IMG/VR virus record: IMGVR_UViG_3300021425_003307
Span: 1 to 27,940 of that record
Source: a virus
Taxonomy: Duplodnaviria; Caudoviricetes
Reading direction: 5' to 3' (one strand)
Length of the DNA: 27,940 bases
Part shown: positions 1,004 through 18,334 of the stretch, one piece after another
How positions within the stretch are numbered: position 1 is the stretch's first letter
How the letters are laid out: each line of letters starts with the position of its first letter
Made by a program: the position numbers and the translations under genes
Notes under the pieces: model-generated
Seen by the model: the letters and a program-made list of their open reading frames with translations, nothing else
Databases searched by the model: none
What the model was told of the DNA's origin: nothing

Positions 1004-1033
1004 AAACCCCACCCCTTTTAAAGGGGCAGGGTT
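1000..1033 (-). terminator. Rho-independent terminator downstream of the 71-aa gene
   Basis: Minus strand reads AACCCTGCCCC-TTTAAAA-GGGGTGGGGTT-TTGTT: an 11-bp stem including two G-U pairs, followed by a U-rich tail. Confidence 0.8.
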
Positions 1034-1063: not shown

Positions 1064-1279
1064 TTAATTAACACGACCGAAAGTTTTCGATCCAGAACGC
1101 ACTCCAGTGATACTAGTCTTGGAGAAGCGTCGAGAACGTTTAAAGTTGCGATCATAGACCACAATCGTCTGATTGGTTTCGGATTGTAGCTGAGCGTTTA
1201 GAGATTCGCCCTGCTTGGTATAAAGGCCAAAAAACCGACCTTTAGAATTACGGATTGCTTTTAGAACTGACTTACTCAT
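1064..1279 (-). CDS. Small basic hypothetical protein (71 aa)
   Basis: ORF flanked by its own promoter and terminator; K/R-rich with a beta-strand-like pattern. Confidence 0.75.
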   Translation of the reverse strand: MSKSVLKAIRNSKGRFFGLYTKQGESLNAQLQSETNQTIVVYDRNFKRSRRFSKTSITGVRSGSKTFGRVN

Positions 1280-1285
1280 GTTTTT

Positions 1286-1314
1286 ATATTAGTATACTTT
1301 AATACTTTTGTCAA
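1286..1314 (-). promoter_or_regulatory. Sigma70-type promoter TTGACA-N17-TAATAT, 6 nt upstream of ATG at 1279
   Basis: Perfect -35 at 1314-1309, 17-nt spacer, -10 at 1291-1286; overlaps the end of the clp gene. Confidence 0.7.
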
Positions 1315-3697
1315 CAATTTTTAAGGATATTTTATTACTTTTTTCACTCTCCATTATAAAGGAGGTTATAGGGAACTGAATAAGCTTTATCACTAAGGTT
1401 TTGATGTTTCTGGCATTCAGATTTTTAGATTTAATTTCTTTAATTAGAAAAGACTTAATAGCTTTGGGGGTCTTTAGATCAATACCCTTATCTAGCAAAC
1501 GCTTCTTTATCTTATTCATCTCAACATCAACAATGCTCTCCATAATTTTATCATTCAGAGTATTGAATATTAAAGTGTTTTGAATCCTAGCAATAAGCTC
1601 TGGACGCAAATACTTGGATAAGCTGTCTTTATAGGATTCTTGCTCATTATTGTCTGTAATGAAGCCCATAGAGCTTTTTGTAGCTTCTTTATGTCCAATA
1701 TTTGTTGTCATGACCACAATGCACTTAGAAAAGTCTACGCGCCTATTGAAACTGTCTGAAATATAACCTTCGTCTAAAAGATGCAGTAGCAAATCTAAAA
1801 TCTTGGGGTCACACTTCTCTATCTCGTCAAATAAGATTACAGAGTTAGGATTATTAGATACAAACTCAGTTAATACCCCGCCATCTTCGTAACCAACATA
1901 ACCAGCATTAGACCCTAGCAGTTTAGAAATTCCAGTCTTATCTTGATACTCACTCATGTTGATTTGCAGGAATGAGTTTTTATTACCAAAGAAATGCTTG
2001 GCTATATTCTTAGCTGTAAAAGTCTTACCCACACTAGTTGGGCCAACAAACAAAAAGTTAGCCAAGGGTTTACTGGGGTCATTTAAACCAACCTTGACAG
2101 AAGAAAGAATATTATAAATCCTTTCTAAAGCCTCATCTTGACCAAAGATCTCCTTCTTCATCTTCTTTTTGAAGTTAGAAAAAGATCTATTACTCTCTCC
2201 AATTATCTTTTTAGGTATCCCAGTTTTTTTCTCGAAAACTTCAAGTATTTGGTTCCTTGAGATTTTTCTCTTCTTATCTTCACCATCAATATAAGATACT
2301 AAATCTTTGACGTATTCTTCTATTAACTCTTGCGTTTGTACCTCATCTGCATCCTCGCCTCTTTGGGAGAATTTTTCCCTGATTAAAGATAAATCTTCAG
2401 CAGGATAATCTTGTTCTATTTTGGCTTTCGCCCCAACTTGGTCAATAATATCAAAAGCTTTCTCTGGGAATCTCTTATTAGACAAATAGATTTCACTCAG
2501 ATCTAAGATGTCTTGGATATTCTTTTTAGAATAGTTAACCCTATGGAAATCTTTATAGAAAGAGATACTACTATTTATCATCTCTAAAGTCTGCTGTTTT
2601 GTAGGCTCTTTAATTTCCACCTTGTCGAATCTCCTCTTCAAAGCTGGATCTTTTCCAAAAGACTTTTCATATTCTTTGAATGTTGTAGCTCCTATACATT
2701 TAATAGAGCCTCTAGCTAAAGCTGGTTTAAGCATGTTTGCAGCATCTATTCCGTTGTCGTTAGAGTTACCAGCCCCCATAATGGTATGAATCTCATCAAT
2801 AAAAAGAATTATCTCAGGACGATCTTCTACTTCTTTCAGTAACCCTTTGAGCCTCTCTTCAAATTGACCTCTATATTGAGTTCCCGCGATCATGGAAGCC
2901 ATATCCACAGTATATATTCTGCACATCTCAATATGGGCAGGGACTTGTCCTGTGATGATTCTCTGAGCTAAACCTTCTACAATAGCAGTTTTGCCCACCC
3001 CTGATTCGCCTAGTAAAATAGCATTACTTTTATGTTTTTTTGATAACACTTCAATTAGGTTATCTATCTCCTTCTCTCTTGATGTTATCGGTATTTGATT
3101 CCCATCCTCAGCCTCCTTATTCAAGTCTAAACAAAACTCCGATAAGAATCCAGAATTTTGTTCGGGTCCAGCAGCCCCAAGAGAACTCAGTAAGTCATCC
3201 AATCCTGAAGGCTGTTCCGTAGGGTGCTGCGTTACAACAAGACTAGCGTCTATGACTAGTTCGCAAAGCACTTCCGACATATGAAGGGTGTCGCAATAAT
3301 CAGAGCGCACCATGTCAGAAAAACTAGATCTTAAAACGCAATAGAGTATATGCTCTACATTGACAAAGAAATCTTCATTATCATCAGCGAAAGATTTAGC
3401 ATCAGCTATAATTTCGTTTAGTTCGCTGTGCCAAGCATTGTCATTTTTTGACTTCGTGAAGTAACCTTTGTTCTCCTTACATATTCTTTTAAAATCTTTT
3501 ATGTAATCCTTCACAGAATAGATGATACCTCTACTCTCAAACAGTAATTGAACCCTTTCAGATAAGTTAGATAAGCATCCATAAAATAAATGAGCAGTTC
3601 TGATTAAGTCATGAGAATTTGAAGCGGCGAATAATTTTGAATCTTTTATCGCCTTCTTTGCTTTTGGAGTCAGATTGTAGTCAGTTAGAGACATCAT
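1289..3697 (-). CDS. ClpA/ClpC-family Hsp100 AAA+ ATPase
   Basis: N-terminal Clp repeats. NBD1 has GESGVGKT, AGTQYRGQFEERLK and LFIDEIH. NBD2 has GPTSVGKT, GYVGYEDGG and LFDEIEK. An SMGF loop lies after NBD2 sensor 1. Confidence 0.93.
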   Translation of the reverse strand: MMSLTDYNLTPKAKKAIKDSKLFAASNSHDLIRTAHLFYGCLSNLSERVQLLFESRGIIYSVKDYIKDFKRICKENKGYFTKSKNDNAWHSELNEIIADAKSFADDNEDFFVNVEHILYCVLRSSFSDMVRSDYCDTLHMSEVLCELVIDASLVVTQHPTEQPSGLDDLLSSLGAAGPEQNSGFLSEFCLDLNKEAEDGNQIPITSREKEIDNLIEVLSKKHKSNAILLGESGVGKTAIVEGLAQRIITGQVPAHIEMCRIYTVDMASMIAGTQYRGQFEERLKGLLKEVEDRPEIILFIDEIHTIMGAGNSNDNGIDAANMLKPALARGSIKCIGATTFKEYEKSFGKDPALKRRFDKVEIKEPTKQQTLEMINSSISFYKDFHRVNYSKKNIQDILDLSEIYLSNKRFPEKAFDIIDQVGAKAKIEQDYPAEDLSLIREKFSQRGEDADEVQTQELIEEYVKDLVSYIDGEDKKRKISRNQILEVFEKKTGIPKKIIGESNRSFSNFKKKMKKEIFGQDEALERIYNILSSVKVGLNDPSKPLANFLFVGPTSVGKTFTAKNIAKHFFGNKNSFLQINMSEYQDKTGISKLLGSNAGYVGYEDGGVLTEFVSNNPNSVILFDEIEKCDPKILDLLLHLLDEGYISDSFNRRVDFSKCIVVMTTNIGHKEATKSSMGFITDNNEQESYKDSLSKYLRPELIARIQNTLIFNTLNDKIMESIVDVEMNKIKKRLLDKGIDLKTPKAIKSFLIKEIKSKNLNARNIKTLVIKLIQFPITSFIMESEKSNKISLKIVDKSIKVY

Positions 3698-3709: not shown

Positions 3710-6250
3710 TTATTTTACCTGAGATAACTTCATATAAATTTTATCTTTTAAGGTGTTGATGGTATTGGCAAAGATTATATCGTCTCCCTTACTGCCTGTA
3801 ATGATGACGACATCGTCTTTCTTGGGCAATTTATTACCAGCATCAAGATAATCTGTCAAGCGAGATTCTCGATCACTATCCATAAATAACACATTAACCA
3901 CACCTTTTTCATCATGCATCTCTAGCCTAGCATATTTATTACCATTCCTACTGGTTCTTTTCACAATATCAACTAGAACACCAACGTGTCTAACTTCGGA
4001 TCTAGGTCCAGCCATTTTAACAGAATCAGAGCATTGATAATCTTCAGGATGCTTAAATATATCCCTTATGCTATACGAATAGCTATAGCCCAGTAATTGT
4101 GTTTCAAAATGCCAGTTGGCGTATTTTATTGAATGTTTGTTTAATCTACAAATCTCTTTATAAGGTTCCCACTTTTTCTTTAATGTGTTTATTCTAGTGT
4201 CTCTAAAGATCTTCTTGTTATCGTCGCCAATCATCTCATTGCCAATCACATCATTAATTGATTCAATAATATTGTAATTATAATTCTCTCCTAAAGCTAT
4301 GAAGTTTCTTTTCTCTCTGTCAGTCAAAACATTGAAGACTTGAGCTTCTAGAACTAGATCTGAACGATTGCTACAGACGAAGGAGTCTAGCAACCCAGCT
4401 TGAATCAAGCTAGATAAAACGCCAATATTTAAACCGACTTGTTTGGCCACTACAAACACCTGATACTTGTTTGAGAAAGATCCCTCTCTGAAGTCTAGAA
4501 GATTGACCAAAACCTTCTCAGAAACGCCCTTAATTGAATTAAGGCCATATCTGATATCCTTACCTTCAATCTTGAAGTCAATATCAGAGTTATTGAGATC
4601 AGGAGGCAACAACTTAATGTCAAAATTAATTAATTCTTGAGAGATCTTAGATATTTCATCATGACTGTTTGGCTCAAATTTAGCGAACTTTAACAAACTC
4701 AAGAAGAATTCTTGTGGGTATTTAAATTTTAAATATACAGTAATAGCAGCTAAGTAAGCATAACTGATAGAGTGGGATTTATTGAAGGAGTAATTAGCGG
4801 AGTCTTCCGCCACCTTCCATAAAACATCAGCTATAACTGGATCTGCATTTTCAAGCTGACTAACTTTCTCGCTAATCTTAGCTTTCCAAGCTGGCATTTG
4901 GTCCACCTTCTTCTTACCAACGATACGGCGCAACTGCTCCGCCTCATCTAAACTAAAGCCAACCTTAACGGCCATTTTCATCAATTGCTCCTGATAAAGA
5001 GGAATACCCCCTGTGTAACCCAGAACAGAGTCAAAAAATTCATGAACTGACTGAGATTCTCCAGTCTTAGCATACTCAGCGTATCTATCTTTGAAGTCTA
5101 ACGCTCCGGGTCTAGCAATCGCTACAACAGCAGACAACTGTTCAAGATTTCTAGGAGCAACTTTCTGACAGACTTTGAAGTTAGTGTCAGCTTCAATCTG
5201 AAAGAGTCCCTGTGGACTTTGTAGGTTAGAAAGGGCAGTATAAATCAAAGGGTCATGAGGATCAATGTCGTTAACATTTAAACCCAATCGCTCACAAACA
5301 TCATTAACAACTGATAAAGTTCTAAGCCCCAAAATATCGAACTTAACACTCAAGCTCGCAACATCATCCATATCATATCCAGATACTAAAGAGCCATCAT
5401 TAGTCTTTTGTAGAGGCATAATGTCTGACTGCTGATAGTAGCAGATAGAAATGCCAGAAGGGTGAACTCCTGTATTCTTAACTAAGCCTTCTAATTTTTT
5501 AGCTATATGAAAGGCTTTAGGATATTTATCTGCATGTTTTTTGAATGACTCACTCTCATCATAAGCAACTTCCAACTTAGCTACTTTACCAAACTGTTTT
5601 GGTATGCTATCGCTAATTTGGTTAACTTCTGTTTCATTCAGTTCAGCGACAATCTTACCGCACTCCTTCATGCAAAGTTTGCCGCTAAGAGTGTTTAGAG
5701 TTAAGATTTTAGAAGTCCTACCTTTATATTTCTCCTCAATGTACTTAACGACTTCACTCCTACGATTATAAGAAATATCGTTATCAACATCAGCAAGAAG
5801 AGACCCATCAAGGAAAACTTCACCGCCATGCTCAATCTGCTTGGCCCTGCTTCTAGAAACGAATCTCTCAAAAAATAAGTCATATTCAATTGGGTTGATG
5901 TTAGTTACACCTAAAAGATACAAAACTAAAGAACCCGCCGCAGATCCTCGTCCAGCACCTGTTGGAATGCCCTGCTTCTTACAAAAGTAAAGAACATCCC
6001 AGTTAAGAAGAATATAATCAATAAACCCCAACTCCTCAAAAATCTCTAACTCCATGATCGTTCGATCATAGTAATCTTTTTTGTTTGGAAGTTTAGTTAT
6101 ACCCTTCTCTCTTAAACCTTTTCTAGAAAGCTCATACAAAATTTCTTTGTTCGAACTCCCCTCCTCTAGACCCAATTCATCTAAGATTTCTTTTGGGACT
6201 ACAATCTCTGGGAGCTTTACTCCAGCTGGAAATGGGTTTTTGTATCTCAT
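3710..6250 (-). CDS. dnaE: DNA polymerase III alpha (DnaE) catalytic core lacking the PHP domain
   Basis: GAGRGSAAGSLVLY, LFFERF, DVDND catalytic aspartates, GVHPSG, KFDILGLRTL, YQEQLM, YSFNKSHS, HhH IRYGLNSIKGV and a C-terminal OB fold. Confidence 0.95.
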   Translation of the reverse strand: MRYKNPFPAGVKLPEIVVPKEILDELGLEEGSSNKEILYELSRKGLREKGITKLPNKKDYYDRTIMELEIFEELGFIDYILLNWDVLYFCKKQGIPTGAGRGSAAGSLVLYLLGVTNINPIEYDLFFERFVSRSRAKQIEHGGEVFLDGSLLADVDNDISYNRRSEVVKYIEEKYKGRTSKILTLNTLSGKLCMKECGKIVAELNETEVNQISDSIPKQFGKVAKLEVAYDESESFKKHADKYPKAFHIAKKLEGLVKNTGVHPSGISICYYQQSDIMPLQKTNDGSLVSGYDMDDVASLSVKFDILGLRTLSVVNDVCERLGLNVNDIDPHDPLIYTALSNLQSPQGLFQIEADTNFKVCQKVAPRNLEQLSAVVAIARPGALDFKDRYAEYAKTGESQSVHEFFDSVLGYTGGIPLYQEQLMKMAVKVGFSLDEAEQLRRIVGKKKVDQMPAWKAKISEKVSQLENADPVIADVLWKVAEDSANYSFNKSHSISYAYLAAITVYLKFKYPQEFFLSLLKFAKFEPNSHDEISKISQELINFDIKLLPPDLNNSDIDFKIEGKDIRYGLNSIKGVSEKVLVNLLDFREGSFSNKYQVFVVAKQVGLNIGVLSSLIQAGLLDSFVCSNRSDLVLEAQVFNVLTDREKRNFIALGENYNYNIIESINDVIGNEMIGDDNKKIFRDTRINTLKKKWEPYKEICRLNKHSIKYANWHFETQLLGYSYSYSIRDIFKHPEDYQCSDSVKMAGPRSEVRHVGVLVDIVKRTSRNGNKYARLEMHDEKGVVNVLFMDSDRESRLTDYLDAGNKLPKKDDVVIITGSKGDDIIFANTINTLKDKIYMKLSQVK

Positions 6251-6879
6251 AGCTCTATTTCAAATAACTGCTTTCTGAAAACTTTAAAGTTCATCTCAAT
6301 ATCATAAAGAGCATCATGCAATCTGTCTTTATCGTGTGGAATATTATATTTTTTAAGTAGGGTCGCCTGACCAGTCCTCAAACCTCTCTGGAAAAAATTG
6401 TTCCAACCGTATTGCCAGCATATAAAATTATCAAAGTCAGGCTTATCTTCCTTTGCGATGGCTCTAGCTAAACTGAGGGTATCTATAATCCTGTCTACAT
6501 ATGAATAGTCAGAACCAAGACCCATTAGCTTTCTCCAAACATTGATCATATATACATCAAACCCTAAGAGATTCTGTCCTACAATTTTATAATCTGGATT
6601 ATAAAGCTCTTTAGAAAAATCAGCCCAAACAACCTCTGGATCTTCCGCTTTCGATTTGTAGTAGTCGTAATTAAATTTGGTGATTCTAGCTGCATCTTCA
6701 GACATTTGAAGATCGTCCCACCAAATATGCCTATCATTCTTCTCTAAGATATTATCTCCTTGGGCAATGATCCAAGAGACTTGATATGGTCTCGACTTGA
6801 TCAAGTTTAAGCCTTCTGTTTCGGTATCTAAAATTAGATACTTTTGCTTTTTATCAAACCTTAATAATTGATCATTCAT
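6247..6879 (-). CDS. DEDDh 3'-5' exonuclease (DnaQ/epsilon-like)
   Basis: ExoI LDTETEG, ExoII GQNLLGFD, ExoIII HDALYD; ATGA overlaps with both neighbouring genes. Confidence 0.9.
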   Translation of the reverse strand: MNDQLLRFDKKQKYLILDTETEGLNLIKSRPYQVSWIIAQGDNILEKNDRHIWWDDLQMSEDAARITKFNYDYYKSKAEDPEVVWADFSKELYNPDYKIVGQNLLGFDVYMINVWRKLMGLGSDYSYVDRIIDTLSLARAIAKEDKPDFDNFICWQYGWNNFFQRGLRTGQATLLKKYNIPHDKDRLHDALYDIEMNFKVFRKQLFEIEL

Positions 6880-7622
6880 GACTGTCTGAGATAGCTTTCT
6901 AAGCAGAATTCTTCACTGCCAAAGTGACTTAAATTAGGGTTACTAAGCTTCGACTGCTTACCAAAAGACCTAGTGCAAAGAATTTTGTAAGTCTGAAGAG
7001 CTTCAACATCCTTCTTGTCTTTGTATAGGATCGTTTTCACTTTAGCAACCCTATATCCCTTTCTTTTTGTGGATTCTTGTAATTTGTAATTGAGTATATG
7101 ATCAAATGGCAAGTCATTACTCTCTGACCAAAATACAGGATTTAAACCATCCAAATCGGGGATGCAGTTTTTCTGATGGAAATTATTCTCGTAGATGTAA
7201 CTATCGTAGAATGGCACAACAAAAGATAATGATGTTTCATCCCAATAGTTTTTGAAAGTGGCGTAGTCTATTCTGCCACCACCTTCAGTGAAGGCGCAAG
7301 AATATATTTTGTTCAACAGCTTGCAACCCTCATCGTCCTTAGCGAAAATAATATTTTTATGGTCAGAGCTTTTAGACTCATCACTCATGTCGTTACAGAA
7401 TGTCACCCTTAGCCCATAATACAAATTCAATTTGTTTTTTTGGCAAGCTTTGAAGGCTTTCATGAAGCTGGTTAAGTTATCCTCAACCAAAACAACATCC
7501 TTGATTTCATTATCGACGCACATTTCGATAAGAGAATCTGAACCAAGTTCCTTCGACTCATCATCTAGAGTGAGGATACTTTTCCCATAAGAGTATGTAG
7601 ATTTGAATACAGGAGTCATCAC
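6876..7622 (-). CDS. Stand-alone PHP domain of DNA polymerase III alpha, metal ligands degenerate
   Basis: FKSTYSYGKSIL resembles HLHVHSEYSLLDG. LVEDNL..F.K..KAC......YGL and IFAKDDEGCKLLNKIYS.A match the DnaE PHP pattern with His ligands substituted. Confidence 0.8.
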   Translation of the reverse strand: MMTPVFKSTYSYGKSILTLDDESKELGSDSLIEMCVDNEIKDVVLVEDNLTSFMKAFKACQKNKLNLYYGLRVTFCNDMSDESKSSDHKNIIFAKDDEGCKLLNKIYSCAFTEGGGRIDYATFKNYWDETSLSFVVPFYDSYIYENNFHQKNCIPDLDGLNPVFWSESNDLPFDHILNYKLQESTKRKGYRVAKVKTILYKDKKDVEALQTYKILCTRSFGKQSKLSNPNLSHFGSEEFCLESYLRQS

Positions 7623-7628
7623 TCCCTC

Positions 7629-7656
7629 ATTCTACACAGATCCAACCAAAGATCAA
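7629..7656 (-). promoter_or_regulatory. Putative promoter TTGATC-N16-TAGAAT, 6 nt upstream of GTG at 7622
   Basis: Minus strand reads TTGATC tttggttggatctgtg TAGAAT gaggga GTG ATG. Confidence 0.45.
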
Positions 7657-8678
7657 GAACAATGAGACGGACAACCCTTATAATATTGTATTTCGTAGGT
7701 GCAACCCTCTGGCACCATATCTTCAGAGAACTCTTCTTCGAAGCAAGATCCTACAGCTTGACCATCTGAATTCTTAAATACATAATAAAAAAAGTCAAAC
7801 TTCATGGAGCAATGCCATTTTTTTGTCCCATCTTTTTTTAGTTCTCCTTTTTGAGTTGCAAAACCGCAAAGCAATCTACCGCTGAATGAATTGTCTGAAG
7901 GGAATCCTTTATCAGCAGCCATGTTTGCCACCGCATCGTCTTCAGAGAAATTATCTAAGTATTGCTGAATCTGAGTGAGTTGCATTTCGAAGCCTAAGAG
8001 ATCCTCGTCGCTTAGTGGAGTCATTCTCATAACCCCGCTTTTTTTAGCATTCGGATCTAACTCAAATTTTAAGAATAAAAATTCACTTTGTTTATTCTCG
8101 TATTCTGGATACAAGTGTTTTGTGGCTAAACTATACATTAGATCTTGCATATTATCTTCAAGATCCTTACCTTTGAAAACTTCTTTACTTGTCTTGAAGT
8201 CCCTAATCAAAGCAAACTTTTGTTTCTTGTATAGAAATAGCTTGTCGATAAAACCCCTTATCCTGTAAGCAATCTGGCCATCATTCTTGACAATATCAAA
8301 ATCCTGCTCAGAAAGCTCTTTAGTGGGTTTATCCAGATCACCACCAAAGAAATCGTAGTTTAGACCATTGAAGGTCATCTCCTTAATAAGTTGGATATTA
8401 TCCTCATCGTCAACCTCTTCACGACGAGCATGTTTCATGACTAACCGCTCTATAGACGGGACAGAAAATATATCTTGGGTCGCCATGATTTTGTCATAGT
8501 GACCCCTTCTCCTCTTTTCACCTAAAAGCTCAAAAATTAAGTGACATATAGAACCTCTTTTTGCGCCATCATTGCTAGTATCTGGCAACTTAAGTTTGTA
8601 CTTACACCAATACAACCAAGAACACCCTTGAGCTGTCTTGATCCTACTTGCTGATAGAGCTGTTTGGGGTTGAGTCAT
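7653..8678 (-). CDS. PD-(D/E)XK nuclease (RecB/AddB/Cas4-like exonuclease)
   Basis: LSASRI....C, G...H, RGFIDKL, IRDFKTSK, Q..MY, and several C-terminal cysteines. Confidence 0.85.
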   Translation of the reverse strand: MTQPQTALSASRIKTAQGCSWLYWCKYKLKLPDTSNDGAKRGSICHLIFELLGEKRRRGHYDKIMATQDIFSVPSIERLVMKHARREEVDDEDNIQLIKEMTFNGLNYDFFGGDLDKPTKELSEQDFDIVKNDGQIAYRIRGFIDKLFLYKKQKFALIRDFKTSKEVFKGKDLEDNMQDLMYSLATKHLYPEYENKQSEFLFLKFELDPNAKKSGVMRMTPLSDEDLLGFEMQLTQIQQYLDNFSEDDAVANMAADKGFPSDNSFSGRLLCGFATQKGELKKDGTKKWHCSMKFDFFYYVFKNSDGQAVGSCFEEEFSEDMVPEGCTYEIQYYKGCPSHCS

Positions 8679-9757
8679 TTAAGTTTTTGGGCCATTTTTT
8701 TATCTGTCTTATTAAATAGATGAGAATTCTTTGAGACAAAATTATGAATATAGTCCCTCTGTTTATTCTGATCTATATCTCTGTTAAGCCAGTTAGTTAT
8801 ATTATAACCAGACTTATACATTTCTCCAAAATCATTTGCATTTTGTGGCAGCTTAATAGTCAGATTATCCAAATCAAAATACTTAGCTAATTTCAAATAG
8901 TTTTTTATTGCCGCTATTAAACCTCTATTCTCTGAAGAGCTAATATCATTATTAGTAGAGATGTATATTTTGTCTAAGGTCTTGCTGGATAGATAGTTGA
9001 TGATGTTCGAACTAGCTGACAAACCAAATAACACCAAAACATTCTTCACTCCTTGATCATAAAGAGCCATAGCATCGCCTATACTCTCAACCAAGATAAC
9101 CGTTCTTAGTTTATCTATCTCTTCGCTGCATTCATTCCCCTCAACATAAGCTGGATAAATCCAAGTGTTCTTTCTACCTATATGCTTCCATTTAGGATAG
9201 TTATTATCTTCGTCTATCTTACGGCCAGAGAACCCAATAATCTGTTTGGTTTCGTTGTATATTGGGAAGACCATTCTTCTATACATCTTTCCTACACCAG
9301 CTAATCCCACTTTAAAAGATACTTGGGTCATCTCTGAAATACCCTTGTCTTTATAAAATTTGTAATTTGGGAACAGCTTATCTAAACAATCATCTGGGTA
9401 AAATTGCTCCATTTCTATCCTGTCTACTTTTTTTGCGACATAAGTTTTGTCACTTTTGATTTTCTTTATAGTTTCAGAGAACTTCTCACTATCGCCTACA
9501 GTCATTCGAACTAAAGCCTCAAAAGGTAAAGACCCTTTAGGCTCAACGAAGTCCATCCAGACTCCAGAGTTCTTGTAAATTTTTAAGGCTGTCGCATTAT
9601 CCCCATTCCTATAAAGAGCTTGAGATCTCCAATGATCTCCACAATCAATAAGTTTGTAACCTATTGATGTCAGAACTTTTTCAAACTCTTCAGAAGGAAC
9701 CAAGTTCTGGGATGTCGCTTCTCTCCTGTCTTGCTGGTGCATCTGGTATACTGTCAT
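8675..9757 (-). CDS. DnaG-like primase (TOPRIM); true start possibly TTG at 9703
   Basis: RRMVFPIYN....IIGFSGR, PKWKH, ILVESIGDAMAL, LFG, STNND and NDFGE; adjacent to the helicase. Confidence 0.85.
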   Translation of the reverse strand: MTVYQMHQQDRREATSQNLVPSEEFEKVLTSIGYKLIDCGDHWRSQALYRNGDNATALKIYKNSGVWMDFVEPKGSLPFEALVRMTVGDSEKFSETIKKIKSDKTYVAKKVDRIEMEQFYPDDCLDKLFPNYKFYKDKGISEMTQVSFKVGLAGVGKMYRRMVFPIYNETKQIIGFSGRKIDEDNNYPKWKHIGRKNTWIYPAYVEGNECSEEIDKLRTVILVESIGDAMALYDQGVKNVLVLFGLSASSNIINYLSSKTLDKIYISTNNDISSSENRGLIAAIKNYLKLAKYFDLDNLTIKLPQNANDFGEMYKSGYNITNWLNRDIDQNKQRDYIHNFVSKNSHLFNKTDKKMAQKLK

Positions 9758-11228
9758 CTAATACTGCATCTCCGTTTTGAACAGCAACGATATCTCTCAA
9801 GTCGCCGCGTTCTGAAATATTGAAATTATTAAAATTCAAATTGATGAAATTTTTGCGAAGAGAATCTTCTACTTGAACTGGCTCTAAAGCGCCAGCAATA
9901 TCTCTACCCAAACTGCGATACTTAACACTGATCATTTTGTGAGTGCCAAATCTTTCCCCCTCCAGCTGAACTTCGTCTTCTGTCTTACGTCTAAGAATAA
10001 ACATGTGAGAACAGAACTGTGTGATTCGGTCCGACAGAGAAACTATACTCTCATCGTCAATTATGTTTTGAGCGTTTCTGTTTGTGGTTATACCGCTCCT
10101 GTTAGATTGAACGGAAGTAATCATCGGAATAACTGGGTCTCCATCTTCAAGAACCTCTTTTTGGATACACCTCTTAAACTTATCAACCATCTCTCCGACA
10201 ACCTGCCACTCGTTTTTATTACCCGCTGAGTCGTTTGTTGTTTTGATATAATCAAAAGAGAAGACCATTTTATTACCCCTACCAACAGTGGAATAGTAGA
10301 ATCTTTTCAAGGTGTTGATCATAACATCAACATCCATACCGCCAACATTGTAGTAGTAGAATTTTAAATCTTTAACTCTAGACCAAACAGACCTAACCTT
10401 ATTGACGACATCTTGCCCAGCGTTTCTCCAATTGCCACTTTCTAGCAGGTGCATTGGGACTCCAGAGTGAGCAGCACACTGACGCATGATAAGCTCTTCC
10501 TTACTCATCTCCCCATTATCAAAGTGTAAAACTGGGACATTGTATTTTAAAGCTACTTTAGTAGCGTAATCCATACAGAATTGAGTTTTACCCACACCAG
10601 AACGAGCTACAATAACGGTGATATTACCCGGACGCAAAAGAGATCCGTAAATGTCATTGACCTTTTGATGCGGCCCCATCATCCCAAACTCTTCGATTGG
10701 ATTATTGCCTCGTTCTTCAATGATATGCTCCATGTCGTCATAGATATTTTCAGGAACATCATTACCGATATCGAAGAGATTAATTCTAGAGTTATAAATC
10801 TGATCAGCAGTCTCAACAATATCTCTATAAGAAGATTCTGGAGCTATAGTCTTCATCTTCTCAGCTATAAGCTCTGAAGATTCAACTATCTCACGCCTAA
10901 TGGAGTATTTCTTAAGCTCTTTACAAGTCTTAATAAGATTCCCAGAAGGGACAGCTCTCATAGAGAGAGACTTAATATAATCAGCAGGGTTGATATTACC
11001 CTCAAAGCTTAAACCTACTTCATTAACTCGTTGAGCTAAGATGATGTTGTCTACCTCCTCTCCAGCATCAACAGACTGCTTGATGACTCTGAAGATGGTA
11101 GCATGTAAGGGTGAAGCCTCAGAAAAAAAGTCTTTATGACTAATAAAGTTTGAAATCTCTATGAGAGACTGGGGATCTTTTAACAGCCCAGCTAAAAGTT
11201 GTTTTTCTAATTCGTAGCTATAAATCAT
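9690..11228 (-). CDS. dnaB: Replicative DNA helicase, DnaB family
   Basis: DnaB N-terminal domain (ELEKQLLAGLL...DFF), Walker A ARSGVGKT, EMS.EEL..R, DYI and VQSNR. Confidence 0.92.
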   Translation of the reverse strand: MIYSYELEKQLLAGLLKDPQSLIEISNFISHKDFFSEASPLHATIFRVIKQSVDAGEEVDNIILAQRVNEVGLSFEGNINPADYIKSLSMRAVPSGNLIKTCKELKKYSIRREIVESSELIAEKMKTIAPESSYRDIVETADQIYNSRINLFDIGNDVPENIYDDMEHIIEERGNNPIEEFGMMGPHQKVNDIYGSLLRPGNITVIVARSGVGKTQFCMDYATKVALKYNVPVLHFDNGEMSKEELIMRQCAAHSGVPMHLLESGNWRNAGQDVVNKVRSVWSRVKDLKFYYYNVGGMDVDVMINTLKRFYYSTVGRGNKMVFSFDYIKTTNDSAGNKNEWQVVGEMVDKFKRCIQKEVLEDGDPVIPMITSVQSNRSGITTNRNAQNIIDDESIVSLSDRITQFCSHMFILRRKTEDEVQLEGERFGTHKMISVKYRSLGRDIAGALEPVQVEDSLRKNFINLNFNNFNISERGDLRDIVAVQNGDAVLDDSIPDAPARQERSDIPELGSF

Positions 11229-11455
11229 AGTTCTTCAGCTCTCTCTTTTTCCAATCTATCTAAATACTGAGATAAAGCCTTTATCAAACCTAATTCTGTA
11301 ATCGAAGAATCAAATTTACTATACACTATAGGGTCTCCTGATTCATTAGCAGCCACCATTATGACACCCTTATGCCTGTCTGAATCCCCAGAAATCTCGT
11401 AAATCTTCTCTACAAAACCACTTGGGATTGAAAATGCCTCGTTGTCTTCACTCAT
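11225..11455 (-). CDS. Hypothetical protein (76 aa)
   Basis: ATGA-coupled to both neighbours. Confidence 0.75.
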   Translation of the reverse strand: MSEDNEAFSIPSGFVEKIYEISGDSDRHKGVIMVAANESGDPIVYSKFDSSITELGLIKALSQYLDRLEKERAEEL

Positions 11456-11859
11456 AAATAAATGTCTTGGTTTTCAAAAAATGACTCATCTACTGTGTCA
11501 TCAGGGTATATCTCTACGAGCTTTATATCGTTCATCTCACAGAAGTCTAGCTTTTTCTGATCTCTTTTCAGTTGATCTAAAAACTTGTACCTATTCTTAT
11601 GGAAATGTTTGACGTATCTAGTATGTTGAGCGCCTTGAACTTCAATAGCAATTTTTTTATTTGCATTGTAGAAGTCTAGTGATAACCGACTACCAACTAT
11701 TCTAAATTCTTCAAATACAATATCTGTACTCCAATATGGGTAGAGGAAATCTTTTACGCCTTTTTGAAACTTACTTCTGCTAGACGCATCCCAGTCTATG
11801 TGATATTTTCTGGGGTTTTTTAGATTCCTTAGTTTACCATCTGTGGAGTAGAACTTCAT
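11452..11859 (-). CDS. Vsr/DUF559-like endonuclease
   Basis: LDFY....KIAIEVQGAQH ... QLKRDQKK..FC..NDIKLVEI. Confidence 0.8.
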   Translation of the reverse strand: MKFYSTDGKLRNLKNPRKYHIDWDASSRSKFQKGVKDFLYPYWSTDIVFEEFRIVGSRLSLDFYNANKKIAIEVQGAQHTRYVKHFHKNRYKFLDQLKRDQKKLDFCEMNDIKLVEIYPDDTVDESFFENQDIYL

Positions 11860-12986
11860 TCTTCTCCATTAAAGATTTTTTTGAAGTAAGCTATAAGGTA
11901 TTGGCAAAGAGAAGAGTCGTCTTCAATAAGAGAAAACAATTTATTCTCTCCCTGCACTTTTTCTGGAAGAGAAAAACCTCCTTCAGCTAATACGTTCTGA
12001 AAATCTTCTGTAATAGAAATCCAAGCTCCAGCCTTTTTAATAAACTCCCAAGCTTCAAGAGCGCCGATAATTTCTTTCTCCACCCAGATTGAGGTTCCCC
12101 CAGTCCTACCGTAGCGAATAGGATAAGAGATTCTAGTGTTAGTCTTCTCATTTGGAGACTTCTTAACAATCACCTTAGCATAATGACCAATTGCAGGATT
12201 AGTCTTTGGGTCCATCTTCTTGTTTGATGGATTAAGTAGTATTTGGTCCCCAGAAAATCTAGGCTCAAATTCAATAATCCAGTTTGCGAAGTGTAGCAAA
12301 GCGTTTCCTCCTGTTGCGGTAGTTTGGCGAACAGGAGCCTTGCTATATGGATCTAGTTTGATATCAGCTCTGACTTGAGAAATGAAGATTGCCATATGAC
12401 CTCTTTTACCAAGAGCGATTGACATCTTCTTCATGAATGTTGCGGCAATGTTAGCTCCACCTGCAACCTGAACTGACTCCTCAAAAGTTTTTTCGTTGTC
12501 AGCTTTTTTAATCAAACCATCTACAGAGTCCAAGCAAAAACAGTATTTGTTCTTCTCTTCGTTTGAGGCTACAAGCTGCCTCATTAAGTCCACTACGGTT
12601 TCATAAATGTTAGACTCAAAAACAAAACAAGTACCATCTTCCCATTCATCGTAATTATAGACAAACTTAACGCCACAACGCTTAATCATCTGCTCTGAAA
12701 GTCTACCCTCAGCTTTGATGTAAACACCTTTTGCTTTCGGCATTTTCAAGAAGTTCTTCATAACTTCTAAGGATGCAGATGTTTTGCCTCCTTCATTCAT
12801 TCCAACAAACCTATGCAGCCCGGGGCCAAATCCGCCATCGAGGTGATGGTCAAATTCAAGAGATCCACTCGAAACTCTATAGTTCACTTGCTCCTCAAAG
12901 TTGAAGTGATCCTCTTTATTATTCTTCAAAAAATTATTTAACAAACTTTTTGAGTCTACTGTCGCTGTTGTCTTCTTGTTAGCCAT
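11856..12986 (-). CDS. RecA/UvsX-like recombinase
   Basis: SSGSLEFD..L.GG, Walker A GMNEGGKTS, LDSVDGL, FISQVR and TGGNALLHFA. Confidence 0.9.
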   Translation of the reverse strand: MANKKTTATVDSKSLLNNFLKNNKEDHFNFEEQVNYRVSSGSLEFDHHLDGGFGPGLHRFVGMNEGGKTSASLEVMKNFLKMPKAKGVYIKAEGRLSEQMIKRCGVKFVYNYDEWEDGTCFVFESNIYETVVDLMRQLVASNEEKNKYCFCLDSVDGLIKKADNEKTFEESVQVAGGANIAATFMKKMSIALGKRGHMAIFISQVRADIKLDPYSKAPVRQTTATGGNALLHFANWIIEFEPRFSGDQILLNPSNKKMDPKTNPAIGHYAKVIVKKSPNEKTNTRISYPIRYGRTGGTSIWVEKEIIGALEAWEFIKKAGAWISITEDFQNVLAEGGFSLPEKVQGENKLFSLIEDDSSLCQYLIAYFKKIFNGEE

Positions 12987-13437: not shown

Positions 13438-13466
13438 AGGTTACCACTCTCTGAGATCGTGTGCAA
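13438..13466 (-). promoter_or_regulatory. Putative promoter TTGCAC-N17-TAACCT with extended TG, 6 nt upstream of ATG at 13431
   Basis: Minus strand reads TTGCAC acgatctcagagagTGg TAACCT agattt ATG; it heads the replication operon. Confidence 0.5.
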
Positions 13467-14469
13467 CCATTTTTCTGACTAATTCTAGAAAATCAGTCTG
13501 AGGCTCCCAGTTAAGGTCTCTCCTTGCTGATGAGGAGTCTCCTAGAAGAAGGTCTACTTCAGCAGGGCGGTAGAATTCAGGATTGATCTGTACCAGAACC
13601 TTATCTTCGTGGTAATATTTTTCATCAACTTCACGACCTTCCCAACGACACTTCTCTAAACCAAACCCTGCAAAATTAAAAGCTTCCTCAACGAATTCAC
13701 GGATAGTATGAGTTTCATTTGAAGATAAGACGTACTCTTTTGGCTCTTCTTGATTGAGCATTAGCCAAACACCTTCGACAAAGTCTTCCGCATCACTCCA
13801 GTCTCGCTTGGCATCTACATTGCCTAACTCAAGAGGCTCAAAATCACCATTAATATATTCATTTTTAATGCGAGCTACGTTTTTGGTAATCTTACGAGTT
13901 ACAAACTCTTCTCCGCGACGAGTTCCTTCATGGTTGAAGAGCCATCCTTGAATGGCGAACAAATTATAAGAGTCTCTCCATACTTTTACCATGTGCCTCG
14001 CACTAGCCTTAGAAACACCGTAAGGGCTTCTTGGTCGCAAAGGATGAAGTTCTGACTGTGGAGAATACAAAACGTCTCCAAACTCCTCTGAAGAGCCAGC
14101 ATTGTAGTATCTACAACTTGGACAATATTTACGAATTGCTTCAAGCTGATATAAAACAGCCATAGCATTTGTCTCCATGTGATTGACTGGCATCTTCCAA
14201 CTCACACCAACAAAAGAATTTGCAGCAAAATTAATAAAGTAATCTGGTTTTTCTTCCGCAACAACTATCTCCGTATTAGCCTGATCAGCAACATCCAAGT
14301 CAATTAGCTTAAACCGAGGATGGCTAAGAAGATGAGCGATATTAACGTGATTCTTAACGCTCAACCTACGGACACCAGCAACAATAAGATGCTCTGTATT
14401 CTTCAAGAGGTAATCAGCCATAAAGCTGCCGTCTTGTCCTGTAACTCCTGTAATGATTACTTTCTTCAT
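13441..14469 (-). CDS. gmd: GDP-mannose 4,6-dehydratase
   Basis: ITGVTGQDGS, SSEEFG, PRSPYGVSK, LFNHE..RRG.EFVTRKI, LGN.DAKRDW and YRPAEVD.LLGD. Confidence 0.95.
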   Translation of the reverse strand: MKKVIITGVTGQDGSFMADYLLKNTEHLIVAGVRRLSVKNHVNIAHLLSHPRFKLIDLDVADQANTEIVVAEEKPDYFINFAANSFVGVSWKMPVNHMETNAMAVLYQLEAIRKYCPSCRYYNAGSSEEFGDVLYSPQSELHPLRPRSPYGVSKASARHMVKVWRDSYNLFAIQGWLFNHEGTRRGEEFVTRKITKNVARIKNEYINGDFEPLELGNVDAKRDWSDAEDFVEGVWLMLNQEEPKEYVLSSNETHTIREFVEEAFNFAGFGLEKCRWEGREVDEKYYHEDKVLVQINPEFYRPAEVDLLLGDSSSARRDLNWEPQTDFLELVRKMVAHDLREW

Positions 14470-15287
14470 GTTTTTAATAAATCTTCTATTGAGTACATTT
14501 TCCTCATATAGGGACTAACGTCCTTCAATACGCTTTCTGCCATATCTCCCTCTCTACGAGGCGCATACTCAAAATTAATATCTAGATTGTTACTTTTCTT
14601 AAAAATATTAAACATCTCTAATACAGAAGTACCATATCCATGACCAAGATTCTCAATCTTATTGGCTGGTTTGTCTATAGATAATTTAATCGCTTCGCAG
14701 ATCTCGTTTACATGGACATAGTCCCTAATACAAGTTCCATCTTTTGTATTGTAGTCTTTACCAAAGATTTTAAATACGCCAGTCTCTTTTGATTTTACTA
14801 AATTGTAAAATAATCCATCTGGGTTTTTTACGTCAATACCATCTGAACCAATCACATTGTAAAATCTAAAAATAGTATAATCTATACCCTGCTCCTTACA
14901 GGTTTGTGAAACTATTTCTTCGGCAACTTTCTTCGATATCCCATAAGGAGAAGCCATCCCTTCAGCAGCACCAGTGGAAGCAAAGATAAAATTATTAGTT
15001 CTTATATGCTTAAGAATGTTTAATGTTCCAACAATGTTAGTTTCGTAATACAATACTGGATCTTTAACAGACTCACCCACTCTCATCTCAGCAGCAAGAT
15101 GCACCACGCAATCAAATTTTTGATGGTATTTTAGATATTCTGGATTGCGTATATCTGCGTGGATAAATTTGACAGGAATTTGAGTTTCGTCTTTATCCAA
15201 ACCAAATACTTTGAATTCAGATTTAATTATTTTTAATAAGTGAGAACCTATATAGCCAGAAGAGCCAGTTACCAATACAGTCTTCAT
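14466..15287 (-). CDS. NAD-dependent epimerase/dehydratase, GalE-like
   Basis: TGSSGYIGSH, HLAA...VGESV..P..YY, YGISK, G.DYNTKDGTCIRDYVHV and RREGD. Confidence 0.88.
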   Translation of the reverse strand: MKTVLVTGSSGYIGSHLLKIIKSEFKVFGLDKDETQIPVKFIHADIRNPEYLKYHQKFDCVVHLAAEMRVGESVKDPVLYYETNIVGTLNILKHIRTNNFIFASTGAAEGMASPYGISKKVAEEIVSQTCKEQGIDYTIFRFYNVIGSDGIDVKNPDGLFYNLVKSKETGVFKIFGKDYNTKDGTCIRDYVHVNEICEAIKLSIDKPANKIENLGHGYGTSVLEMFNIFKKSNNLDINFEYAPRREGDMAESVLKDVSPYMRKMYSIEDLLKT

Positions 15288-15976
15288 TTTAAAAAAACTT
15301 CCATGCTTTGAATTTGATCGAGTAAAAATGTGGTATCCATACCCATGCTTACTATTTTATAATCTTTGAACTTATTTTCAAGCTCTTCTTTTATATTAGA
15401 TACAATATGGACGCATCGTTTTTCTTTGTGTATTTTATTCTCAAACTCAGATATGATGGACTTGTATTTTGGGTTATCCCAATCTGCAACGCAACCTACG
15501 TCAGCAGATAAGTCGTAAGGGCCAAGCATGAAGTAATCAAAGTTATCTTTGATCGAGTCTAGTAAATCTATTCCAGATCTTGTTTCAATCTGAGCAATTA
15601 GCTTGGGATTTCTGTTTTGTAGTAATTCTTTTCTCCGTCCCCAACCGTTCTCACATACGAGTCCTTGGCCCCTCTTACCAAGTGGAGGATACAAACACCA
15701 GTCTAAAATTGATTGAGCATAATCTTCAGAATTCACTGTTGAAAAGATCACACCGTAAAGTCCAGCATCCAAGCAGTGCCTGACTTTGGTTTTATTCATT
15801 TCCGAAAATCTAACAAAAGTCTTTTTACCAGCATGATTAGCTAGCTGAATTGATGTTACAAGAGTTTCAGAATTAAATGCTCCATGCTCATCGTCAAAAA
15901 CAATACCATTAAAACTGCTTTGACAGTAGATTGTTGTGATCTGAGAGGATGGTATTTGTTGCCAAAGAAGCTTCAT
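15284..15976 (-). CDS. HpcH/HpaI class II pyruvate aldolase
   Basis: DDEHG, FVR, YPPLGKRG, AQIET and GPYDLS. The start is better placed at ATG 15976 (TAATG overlap with the upstream stop). Confidence 0.88.
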   Translation of the reverse strand: MKLLWQQIPSSQITTIYCQSSFNGIVFDDEHGAFNSETLVTSIQLANHAGKKTFVRFSEMNKTKVRHCLDAGLYGVIFSTVNSEDYAQSILDWCLYPPLGKRGQGLVCENGWGRRKELLQNRNPKLIAQIETRSGIDLLDSIKDNFDYFMLGPYDLSADVGCVADWDNPKYKSIISEFENKIHKEKRCVHIVSNIKEELENKFKDYKIVSMGMDTTFLLDQIQSMEVFLK

Positions 15977-16605
15977 TATTCGTGTCCTTTCAAAACATTC
16001 CAATCTTCTTCTGTATCTATATCTAAATTATAAGGAAATCCAACTTTAAAAATATAAGGATTATTACCTATCCTGTTATGCATGTCTAGAACTTCAGGTT
16101 TAAATGTGTATAAATACGAGTTTTCACAATACCACTCTGGTAAATCTTGTGTCTGTTCAAGTTTGACTGGATTATGATTAACGGGGCATAGGCCATATTT
16201 CTCTTTTCTCCAAAATCTTTTTTGAACCGCATCTACAGAAAAAACAGAGTCGAAACCTTCCTTTATTTTATAGTTGGAGAAGGTAATATGATTAACATCA
16301 AGAAGTGGAGATGTTACATGGATTTGGCAGATAGTATCTTGAATATTAAATCTTTTTACAAAACTCTTCAATAAGTCCACAACTGAAACTTCATCACCCT
16401 GAAAGTTTTCGTCCCTTAAAAAGGGTTTTACCCAAGGTTTGGACATGCATCCATCCATGATCTCCAATGAGTCCGTATCCACATAAACTTCAAAATCTTT
16501 AAGTTTGTCAATAGTATGCTCCCATAAAGGCTTTCCTTTAAATATTCTAAAGTTTTTTTCTGGGACTCTTTGTGAGTTTTTTTTAATTGGTATGTATACA
16601 ATCAT
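15976..16605 (-). CDS. CMP-ulosonic acid synthetase (acylneuraminate cytidylyltransferase family)
   Basis: IPIKKNSQRVPEKN.R.F.GKPL, VDTD, HVTSPL and DIDTEEDW. The start is better placed at ATG 16605 (ATGA overlap). Confidence 0.88.
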   Translation of the reverse strand: MIVYIPIKKNSQRVPEKNFRIFKGKPLWEHTIDKLKDFEVYVDTDSLEIMDGCMSKPWVKPFLRDENFQGDEVSVVDLLKSFVKRFNIQDTICQIHVTSPLLDVNHITFSNYKIKEGFDSVFSVDAVQKRFWRKEKYGLCPVNHNPVKLEQTQDLPEWYCENSYLYTFKPEVLDMHNRIGNNPYIFKVGFPYNLDIDTEEDWNVLKGHE

Positions 16606-17594
16606 TTTAAATATTTTTCTATTTTTTGTAGAGATTGCTTTACAGCCATCCACATGTCTAAATACTTGTAAGTAGCTAATCTACCAGTAAAGATTATGTT
16701 GTTTTCCTGTTTAGCTAAATTTTTATATTTTTTGTATAACTGATTAGGCTCTTTAAATGGTAATGGGTAAAAAGGTATATTTGTTTCAGTGTGTTCGACA
16801 GGGTATTCCTTTGTAATTACCGTCATAGTGTCGTTATCTTTGCTAAAATAACTATGATCATACTTTCTCGTATATTTTGTTTTTTTTGTATTTTGGTTTT
16901 CGACAAGATACTGCATTTTTTTATCGGAAACCTCATGCTTAAATATTAGACTCCTGTAAGGCAATCTGCCATATCTATAGTTGTAATATTCATCAATTTT
17001 ACCTGTGTATACAACAAGATCGTAATTCTCTTTTTTCCATTCTTCTTTGTTGCAATTTAATTTTACATAAATACCAGATATCATTTTTTTAAACATTTCT
17101 GTATAACCATTTTTAGGAATACATTGATATTTATCATTCTTAAACCAAGTTGGGTCTTCCAACTCGGAAGTGTCTGGAATTCTTTTTGTTATTGATTTTG
17201 GTATCTCTTCAAAAGGTAGACCCCACTGCTTCTCCGAATAATCTTTAAAAATATATTTTTCGATTTCTTCCGCACTTAGCTCTCTACCTATTTCTGAGAT
17301 AGTTTTCTTACTGTAAGGTAAAGATATTTTTCCAATTTCAGTTACCCCTTTAGGTTTATAGGAGAATGGAGTCCACTCAGTAAACCTACTCAAAAAAGAA
17401 AAAACCTCTTCATCATTTGTATGAAAAATATGAGGGCCATAATGATGAACTAACGTATTGCATATTAATCCATCATAACAATTTCCTCCTATATGTTTTC
17501 TGGTTTCAAAAATCTTAACATTATACCCTTTATCTTTTAAGGCCACTGCTGCTGTAACTCCAGATAAGCCACAACCAACAATAATAGCATTCAT
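16602..17594 (-). CDS. glf: UDP-galactopyranose mutase
   Basis: IVGCGLSG, HIGGNCYD, H.YGPHIFHT, YQ.IP..GYT, LPYRSL and GRLATYKYLDM. Confidence 0.93.
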   Translation of the reverse strand: MNAIIVGCGLSGVTAAVALKDKGYNVKIFETRKHIGGNCYDGLICNTLVHHYGPHIFHTNDEEVFSFLSRFTEWTPFSYKPKGVTEIGKISLPYSKKTISEIGRELSAEEIEKYIFKDYSEKQWGLPFEEIPKSITKRIPDTSELEDPTWFKNDKYQCIPKNGYTEMFKKMISGIYVKLNCNKEEWKKENYDLVVYTGKIDEYYNYRYGRLPYRSLIFKHEVSDKKMQYLVENQNTKKTKYTRKYDHSYFSKDNDTMTVITKEYPVEHTETNIPFYPLPFKEPNQLYKKYKNLAKQENNIIFTGRLATYKYLDMWMAVKQSLQKIEKYLK

Positions 17595-18334
17595 TTTTTA
17601 TTCTTTAAGTTGTGGAGTTTTGATTCGTTGAACATTGAATTGTAAAAATTTTGCACATCAACATTTTCTTTTATAAGCTCTGTCTCTAAACCTTTTTGTT
17701 GATACATAAGTTTAAATTCATTGTGAGATAGGTTGTTGTGTTTTAATAGGCAAGTATTTAAATCTGAATGTATTCTTGACATTGAATCCATATTGCCCTG
17801 ACTTCTTGGTTCGCTAATTATGCCTTCGCAATAGACATTGCTAGTAACAGCAACTTTACCTAGAAAGCAAGATTCAATTACGTTAAAATAATGGCAACTA
17901 TCCCATATTCCTCCATAGATTGTCGGCATTGGGAAAAATAAGTCCAAAACAGACTTATGAACTATTTTCATTTGATTATTCGAAAATAAAAGACTCTGAA
18001 CTTTGTCATTGTTTTTTTTGGGATAATTTTTTGACTTTGAATCGCAAACTAAAACAAGTGGATTATAATCAATAAGGTCTTTTTTAATTTGATCTACTAC
18101 AGTGAGTTCTGTATCGCTAATGTATTTTACATCATAATCAGTAAACCAGTAGTAATCGTAATTACTAGGACGGTTAGTGAACAAATAATTTCTATTATTC
18201 GCCCAGCTCATACCTTTATTAAAGGATAAAGCTTCAGGGTTATATTCATCATGTGTGACAAAGAAAATATCTACGTTTTCGTTTCTATGAACAAGCTTTC
18301 CTTTGGGAGAAGTTTCTAACATGCATATTTTCAT
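17591..18334 (-). CDS. Hypothetical protein, possibly a divergent GT-A glycosyltransferase
   Basis: SWANNRN...YDYYWFTDYDV (DxD after a beta strand); lies within the sugar cluster. Confidence 0.5.
   Translation of the reverse strand: MKICMLETSPKGKLVHRNENVDIFFVTHDEYNPEALSFNKGMSWANNRNYLFTNRPSNYDYYWFTDYDVKYISDTELTVVDQIKKDLIDYNPLVLVCDSKSKNYPKKNNDKVQSLLFSNNQMKIVHKSVLDLFFPMPTIYGGIWDSCHYFNVIESCFLGKVAVTSNVYCEGIISEPRSQGNMDSMSRIHSDLNTCLLKHNNLSHNEFKLMYQQKGLETELIKENVDVQNFYNSMFNESKLHNLKNKK

Follow-up and report, generated by a model that had tools for sequence, protein, structure and literature searches.

Three separate phage genes for a PHP module, a DEDDh exonuclease and a DnaE-type core as probable parts of one C-family DNA polymerase

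The tailed-phage record IMGVR_UViG_3300021425_003307 (Caudoviricetes), from an uncultured phage of estuarine origin, carries, in the 27,940-nucleotide stretch analysed here (positions 1 to 27,940, hereafter the window), three consecutive minus-strand open reading frames (ORFs) encoding a PHP module, a DEDDh exonuclease and a DnaE-type polymerase core. The question raised by this locus is whether three separately encoded proteins are parts of one polymerase, and whether that polymerase replicates the phage. We conclude that they are probably parts of one DnaE-type C-family polymerase that assembles non-covalently into the phage replicase. The features concerned are as follows.

3710..6250, minus strand: PHP-less DnaE-type polymerase core, 846 amino acids (aa)
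6247..6250, minus strand: ATGA overlap of the exonuclease stop and the core start, from the ORF sequence
6247..6879, minus strand: DEDDh 3′-5′ exonuclease, 210 aa
6876..6879, minus strand: ATGA overlap of the PHP stop and the exonuclease start, from the ORF sequence
6876..7622, minus strand: stand-alone PHP module, 248 aa from GTG or 247 aa from the ATG at 7619

ORF analysis of the window confirmed three separate frames, and their coordinates agree with the two ATGA stop/start overlaps described in an earlier reading of the letters alone (the sequence-only reading). No intein or Hint family was found on the three window proteins (Pfam, E 0.01), and intein halves were detected in relatives; with separate frames and no intein family, the proposal of a naturally split, intein-free, three-gene polymerase stands. 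At least 90% of the sequence words of the window occur in fourteen public DNA runs, most of which bear an estuary, salt marsh or seawater label, and RNA runs contained just 5-7%. A single contig bridged both junctions in three of the four runs compared, with 3-4 substitutions and no gaps; two of these three are flagged as possible sources of the window DNA, and in the fourth run the contigs stop short of the junctions. An assembly indel, the error for which the junctions had been recommended for checking, was therefore rejected as the origin of the split, given gap-free spanning contigs and separate ORFs in viral relatives.

The PHP module matched its Pfam family with 27.8 bits, just above the cut-off of 26.4. 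Sequence searches against solved structures gave nothing useful and a fold search alone gave matches: a model of the lone window protein (predicted local distance difference test, pLDDT, 79) had its best fold matches in the PHP domains of E. coli and Taq DnaE (E 3e-9). An active PHP proofreader is described as having nine ligands, HHDHEH[C/H]DH (PMC12926913). Alignment with Salmonella DnaE, numbered according to Table 1 of PMC3666897, placed V5, K7, R72, K89, F138, T197 and L199 at positions 1, 2, 5, 6, 7, 8 and 9, all of them replacements; positions 3 and 4 are ambiguous in the alignment and hold no His. None of the nine ligands is thus clearly kept, and the loss of metal-binding residues noticed earlier is confirmed for seven positions, with two ambiguous. 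H88 was considered as a surviving ligand and rejected, as K89 aligns at that position and H88 is variable.

The gene has nevertheless been retained under purifying selection, as the description of a dead but kept PHP implied. The ratio of nonsynonymous to synonymous substitution rates (dN/dS) was 0.038-0.076 in 11 of 15 pairs, the other four being saturated; dS was mostly above 1 and the values are rough. K7 (or R), R72, K89, D48, Y139, D140, R218 and H233 are each conserved in at least 90% of 210 PHP sequences. Fused relatives show the same ligand losses, so inactivation of the PHP predates the fusions. The inactive PHP of E. coli is described as having a structural role, with Arg replacements being typical (PMC3666897); the domain is counted in the conserved core of C-family enzymes (PMC3919608, PMC12926913), and a bacterial survey of 2026 describes it as universally present (PMC12926913).

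The second protein is an intact DEDDh exonuclease, as first read: it matched Pfam RNase_T with 47 bits, and the active-site residues D18, E20, D108, H188 and D193 are kept in 209-210 of 210 distinct relatives. It has the DnaQ/epsilon-type DEDDh site and fold, and its best sequence match of solved structure is the Thermotoga maritima PolC exonuclease 2P1J (E 6.6e-7). Profile positions 166-200 align with epsilon 140-174, and the chain of 210 aa ends near epsilon residue 184 of 243. It therefore stops where the epsilon catalytic domain stops, without an epsilon-like C-terminal tether, the segment described as binding alpha (PMC3664792; PMC2528190). The C-terminus was also considered as a clamp-binding motif, which was rejected as Q204 is kept in only 71 of 210 sequences.

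In the third protein, Pfam identified DNA_pol3_alpha, the finger domain (312-464), HHH_6 (545-628) and a weak OB domain (762-820), giving the fingers, HhH, OB order of DnaE behind palm and thumb. The palm aspartates D154, D156 and D305 fall on the motifs of Taq DnaE, and 227-228 of 228 cores have them, which bears out the assignment of a DnaE core with catalytic aspartates. The core matches positions 280-1026 of the 1146 of PRK05673, and the chain ends after the OB domain, so that the tau-binding C-terminal domain is absent. None of 226 cores matched the clamp-binding pattern used, which a divergent motif could escape.

The PHP does not share a polypeptide with the core in the window as it does in DnaE. 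The sequence-only reading placed the start of the core right where the PHP ends, which is correct to the extent that the cut lies near the PHP end; it is not exactly there, as the PHP chain is about 20-25 residues too short to reach the end of the PHP domain of DnaE. The last PHP helix/strand appears to be represented by the first part of the core chain in most relatives; in the window it is shortened.

The three-gene order is widely conserved, as the suggested search of viral metagenomes revealed. In a first round of 80 viral loci, seven of which had too little upstream DNA, the genes were separate ORFs in 73 and fused in none. Wider scans with more distant alignments gave 322 loci, reduced to 234 distinct cores, and 212 of the 234 have separate PHP, exonuclease and core genes in that order (110 adjacent; 102 with a gap of more than 150 nt at one or both junctions). 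The other 22 comprise 17 loci with short upstream sequence and five single cases, each one of the 234.

L085: separate genes in order, core with an apparent split intein
L096: frameshifted assembly
L081: PHP-exonuclease-core triple fusion
L294: exonuclease gene, then PHP-core fusion
L306: core with neither PHP nor exonuclease in the upstream flank

Fifteen loci (L083-L097) come from metagenome-assembled genomes (MAGs) that are GTDB species representatives with unrelated labels (Flavobacteriaceae, Verrucomicrobiales, an Asgard archaeon, Patescibacteria); their synteny is phage-like, and they are most likely misbinned phage contigs. Among GenBank phages, none matched the PHP by tblastn and only three Microbacterium phages matched the exonuclease, weakly, so no cultured member or host was found.

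The description of the genes as coupled holds for the ATGA overlaps of the window, but not as a rule for the group, where the junctions vary and tolerate inserted genes. PHP/exonuclease offsets in relatives were 0, -1, -4, -8, -11 or -20, or a gene was inserted; the exonuclease/core offset was -4 in 68 of 73 close relatives, with an inserted gene in the other five. Junction inserts include cupins, methyltransferases, nuclease-like ORFs (named by eye) and a conserved 72-aa protein.

Two kinds of insert recur. The nuclease-like ORFs are found at the PHP/exonuclease junction (L020:1265-1795 and 22 similar inserts), and a similar unannotated domain is fused to the C-terminus of the PHP in proteins P0121, P0122, P0124, P0125, P0127 and P0156-P0158; these are possibly mobile endonucleases targeting this junction. 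In a sister group a conserved protein of 72-75 aa with an acidic tail lies directly before the core (L106:5769-5984 and 63 other distinct loci). It has no NCBIfam match and no homologue in the window, and is a candidate theta-like accessory subunit. L306 has a core with the 72-aa protein (L306:3831-6660), and may be a rearranged genome, a chimeric contig or a real PHP-free case. In L085:8001-10985 the core is cut again by an apparent split intein at a YSFNK site, giving a four-gene polymerase; apparent split-intein cores were also seen in proteins P0176, P0216, P0242, P0289, P0294, P0300 and P0310, and other relatives have contiguous inteins at three or more sites.

These junctions bear directly on whether a single chain could be made from the three frames by ribosomal frameshifting, hopping, RNA splicing or protein splicing. 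The frames do lie in the same order as in a natural fusion, and the -4 overlap of exonuclease and core is common among close relatives. But PHP/exonuclease offsets occur in all three frames, no Rfam match or intein family was found, and of 109 stand-alone cores in the core tree known from protein sequence only, 108 start with Met, and most of the starts cluster to within a few residues (separateness being read here from the initial Met and shared start rather than from genome context). Whole unrelated genes stand at both junctions in relatives, and the 102 split loci with junction inserts are a strong argument against frameshifting, hopping and splicing alike. We consider a single chain extremely unlikely.

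Natural fusions provide the main evidence that the three proteins belong together. Forty-five longer proteins matching the PHP profile and 150 listed core-search representatives gave 192 distinct proteins, among which were 28 PHP-exonuclease-core chains (many of them near-copies), 15 PHP-core chains, two PHP-exonuclease chains, nine PHPs joined to something else and 138 cores without a PHP. The triple fusion of L081, a 173-kb record estimated to be complete, sits between the primase/PD-(D/E)XK genes and Clp, the same slot as the window genes. In a core tree of 148 rows, rooted on three single-chain DnaEs (a weak root, as these outgroups are distant), fused forms are scattered among 124 stand-alone cores, requiring 9 steps against 30 if re-fusion is barred. 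A 51-row subset required 8 changes, and stand-alone cores as one clade were rejected (approximately unbiased test, p-AU 2e-73; quick search, LG+G4). The simplest reading of these trees is an old split with repeated re-fusion in the phage group.

To see how the modules may be arranged, the first 934 residues of the L081 fusion were modelled with AlphaFold2 (pLDDT 90.1; predicted template-modelling score, pTM, 0.87). The model superposes on Taq DnaE 3e0d over 665 residues (3.3 Å, Z 32.4, range 2-934). The match begins at the first strand of the PHP and extends to the fingers, the exonuclease being looped out, and Foldseek concurs; the model fits DnaE entries (Z 30-33) better than PolC entries (Z 22-25). 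Its exonuclease superposes on epsilon 2gui over 168 residues (Z 19.8, 2.0 Å). Segments 9-14 and 214-233, below pLDDT 50 in the lone window PHP, reach 79-97 in the L081 model, which has a different sequence and alignment. The alignment of the isolated alpha PHP chimera continues beyond the exonuclease to model residue 492, which suggests that the N-terminal end of the core carries the final element of the PHP. The fusion is thus predicted to fold with the PHP docked on the core as in DnaE. Together with the natural fusions, which have the same modules, order and genomic position, the model points to a likely heterotrimer in the window phage.

Several points weigh against this conclusion. The modelled chain is a covalent fusion 35-50% identical to the window proteins. 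Its alignment had 86 rows, only eight of them spanning more than one module, with exonuclease row ends partly misaligned, and the PHP-core docking may stem from likeness to solved DnaE structures. The N-terminal arm of the core is shorter in the window than in most relatives. The large junction inserts of 102 of the 212 ordered loci mean that tight coupling is not required, and in L306 the 4 kb upstream of the core contain neither a PHP nor an exonuclease gene. The status of this enzyme as the only polymerase, discussed below, rests on the genomes of relatives. Mutual information between chains points neither way, with a top z of 8.2 for PHP-core against 7.7 for a PD-(D/E)XK-core control, from about 190-197 paired loci with an effective number of 63-88.

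The PHP may instead have drifted towards a different function, such as the binding of a nucleotide, DNA or another replisome protein, leaving a core that is self-sufficient. What was once the active site of the PHP is now a basic/acidic pocket under strong conservation (K7, K/R14, E47, D48, R72, K89, D140, K196, R218, H233; 210 sequences), eight proteins have a PHP fused to an unrelated C-terminal domain, and L306 has a core with no nearby PHP gene. Repeated PHP-core fusion, the canonical docking in the L081 model and the descriptions cited above of the PHP as part of the C-family core argue against such drift, which we regard as quite unlikely.

A somewhat less remote, though still doubtful, alternative concerns the exonuclease: PHP and core would form the stable polymerase, and the exonuclease, free or transiently bound, would proofread in trans. 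The missing epsilon-like tether fits this, as do PHP-core fusions that leave the exonuclease outside, which arose at several places in the tree (in L294 the exonuclease gene precedes the fusion), and for mycobacterial DnaQ a lack of stable binding to DnaE1 has been described (PMC12926913). On the other hand, PHP-exonuclease and PHP-exonuclease-core fusions exist, the exonuclease gene lies between the other two in 212 of 234 loci, and a pTM of 0.87 for three modules would be hard to reach with a fifth of the chain unplaced.

Whether the assembled enzyme would be the replicase was addressed in relatives with larger genomes. Five relatives of 172-203 kb and 91-100% estimated completeness have one C-family core each, and no match to PolA, PolB or beta-clamp was found in them; the complete fusion-bearing record and a 79%-complete record likewise had no match to PolA, PolB or a credible clamp. 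A weak clamp match in G002 (E 0.002) was rejected, as it falls on the end of the Clp gene, and the real clamps of two MAGs are on contigs other than the polymerase contig. With one core and no PolA or PolB in relatives, the three-gene polymerase likely serves these phages as replicase. A role as an accessory polymerase in repair or recombination, with the phage genome replicated by host Pol III, would fit the lack of a clamp match in six near-complete relatives, the lack of a clamp motif or tau-binding domain, and the nearby RecA-like and PD-(D/E)XK genes. It is very unlikely given that the genes sit with a helicase and a primase, that an intact proofreading-type nuclease is kept, and that this is the sole polymerase detected in the records of near-complete relatives.

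The three genes may be expressed from a single start. A promoter-like motif was found just before the PHP gene.

7629..7656, minus strand: sigma-70-like promoter motif, -35 at 7656-7651, 16-nt spacer, -10 at 7634-7629

Its -35 element overlaps the stop codon of the upstream gene, and in the window the motif ends 6 nt before the PHP GTG and 9 nt before the PHP ATG. Among 172 distinct upstream regions, 126 have the motif with its end 3-11 nt from the PHP ATG, and in 92 of these the distance is 6-7 nt; 200 shuffled controls gave a mean of 0.7 and a maximum of 4, the pattern having been written post hoc after viewing the sequences. No such motif was found before the exonuclease in 179 upstream regions or before the core in 176. 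A promoter scan of the window lists this motif at 9 of 12, a setting in which the regional count is at chance level (26 versus 23.8). A leaderless transcript starting with the PHP and running through exonuclease and core is predicted. A second promoter-like motif (1286-1314, minus strand) is separated by 6 nt from the downstream ATG of an ORF (1064-1279, minus strand) whose 71-aa product belongs to no known family. A terminator-like hairpin (1005-1033, minus strand) follows this ORF, for which a leaderless start is again predicted.

From these data we propose how the polymerase would work. One transcript would start at the promoter-like motif, and the overlapping stop/start codons would couple translation. 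The metal-free PHP barrel would dock on the palm and thumb as in single-chain DnaE, with the N-terminal arm of the core adding the last PHP element, and would serve as a structural brace in which Lys/Arg side chains replace the metals as in E. coli alpha. The core would synthesize DNA on primers from the neighbouring primase and helicase, and the DEDDh protein would proofread from a docking site on the PHP-core body; having no epsilon-like tail, it would dock by a surface of its catalytic domain. Searches for a clamp, a clamp-binding motif and a tau-binding domain were all negative, so that processivity is probably intrinsic or borrowed in some way.

Among known systems, the E. coli Pol III core (DnaE1 alpha with inactive PHP, epsilon DnaQ and theta) is similar in its DnaE-type core, its metal-free PHP with basic substitutions and its separate DEDDh exonuclease. 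It differs in that here the PHP is its own polypeptide, the exonuclease lacks a C-terminal tether, neither a tau-binding domain nor a clamp motif was found, and the genes are adjacent behind one promoter-like motif. By analogy, the phage system may work like E. coli alpha and epsilon with the PHP detached. PolC (Geobacillus kaustophilus 3F2B; T. maritima 2P1J) also has a DEDDh domain tied to the PHP region. In PolC, however, the exonuclease is described as lying between PHP ligands 5 and 6 (PMC3666897, Table 1) and the OB domain ahead of the PHP (PMC3919608, PMC3666897), whereas here the exonuclease follows all nine ligand positions and the whole barrel, the OB domain is C-terminal and the core is DnaE-type. 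An architecture intermediate between DnaE plus epsilon and PolC, as the sequence-only reading had it, thus applies only in a loose sense: the insertion point differs, the core is DnaE-type and there is no epsilon tether.

Bacteroidetes DnaE1 with fused DnaQ (Timinskas 2014, PMC3919608) is a DnaE with its own DEDDh domain, described as one chain with the exonuclease N-terminal to the PHP; here the place of the exonuclease is between PHP and core, and the chains number three, or one in some relatives. The split Pol III alpha of group 2.2 jumbo phages (Iyer 2021, PMC7824862) is likewise an intein-free split of a phage C-family polymerase, but is described as a minimal palm in two distant genes, without other Pol III domains and beside PolB. 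Cyanobacterial split-intein dnaE and fractured dnaE loci (Dassa 2009, PMC2677866) also have dnaE in pieces, and relatives' cores here carry inteins and split inteins. There the pieces are described as rejoined by protein splicing inside the core, whereas the window cuts have no intein halves; the term 'PHP' does not occur in the main text of that article. Streptomyces phages Phettuccine and BillNye have a C-family polymerase in a replication cluster, but their DnaE is one chain that keeps all nine PHP ligands and is 27-33% identical to the window core. Viral C-family enzymes have been described with an N-terminal PHP (Kazlauskas 2011, PMC3201878). No description of the separate PHP, exonuclease and core layout was found in the open-access literature by title or abstract opening; supplementary lists of atypical DnaE could bear on this.

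The window as a whole is a phage replication cluster, which by Pfam also includes ribonucleotide reductase and SSB. The genes on either side are as follows.

7653..12986, minus strand: PD-(D/E)XK nuclease, primase, DnaB helicase, endonuclease and RecA-like recombinase (Pfam; phage replication cluster), upstream
1289..3697, minus strand: ClpA/B-like AAA+ ATPase directly after the core (Pfam; syntenic in close relatives), downstream

Relatives, among them the fused form L081, share the synteny of the primase and PD-(D/E)XK genes; in L081 the ClpA/B-like ATPase also follows the core, in a shorter form. This ATPase may be linked to replisome remodelling. A nucleotide-sugar/glycosyltransferase block (GDP-mannose dehydratase, epimerase, aldolase, cytidylyltransferase, UDP-galactopyranose mutase) lies inside the replication region at 13441-19745 (minus strand) and 24629-25702 (plus strand). 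A divergent cluster with SSB holds a small sigma-70-like factor and Hsp20 (23675-24244 and 25722-26036, both plus strand). No Rfam, tRNA or tmRNA match was found within the window.

A further and speculative possibility, to which we give about the same low weight as to proofreading in trans, is that the dead PHP represents a fourth type of Pol III subunit, one able to dissociate, with its basic pocket repurposed to bind pyrophosphate, nucleotide or the primer strand, and with its docking switching on or tuning a clamp-independent replicase. If so, nature would have dissected Pol III alpha in this clade by repeated splitting and re-fusion, and the position after the PHP would be a third one for the proofreader. 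More generally, annotation pipelines would read such genes as fragments, when they stand for the separately made PHP, proofreader and core of a large group of aquatic phages. The group may offer another way to attach a proofreader without the tether of epsilon. With two- and three-module fusions in relatives serving as controls, comparing the core with and without its PHP would become a direct experiment on the role of the inactive PHP.

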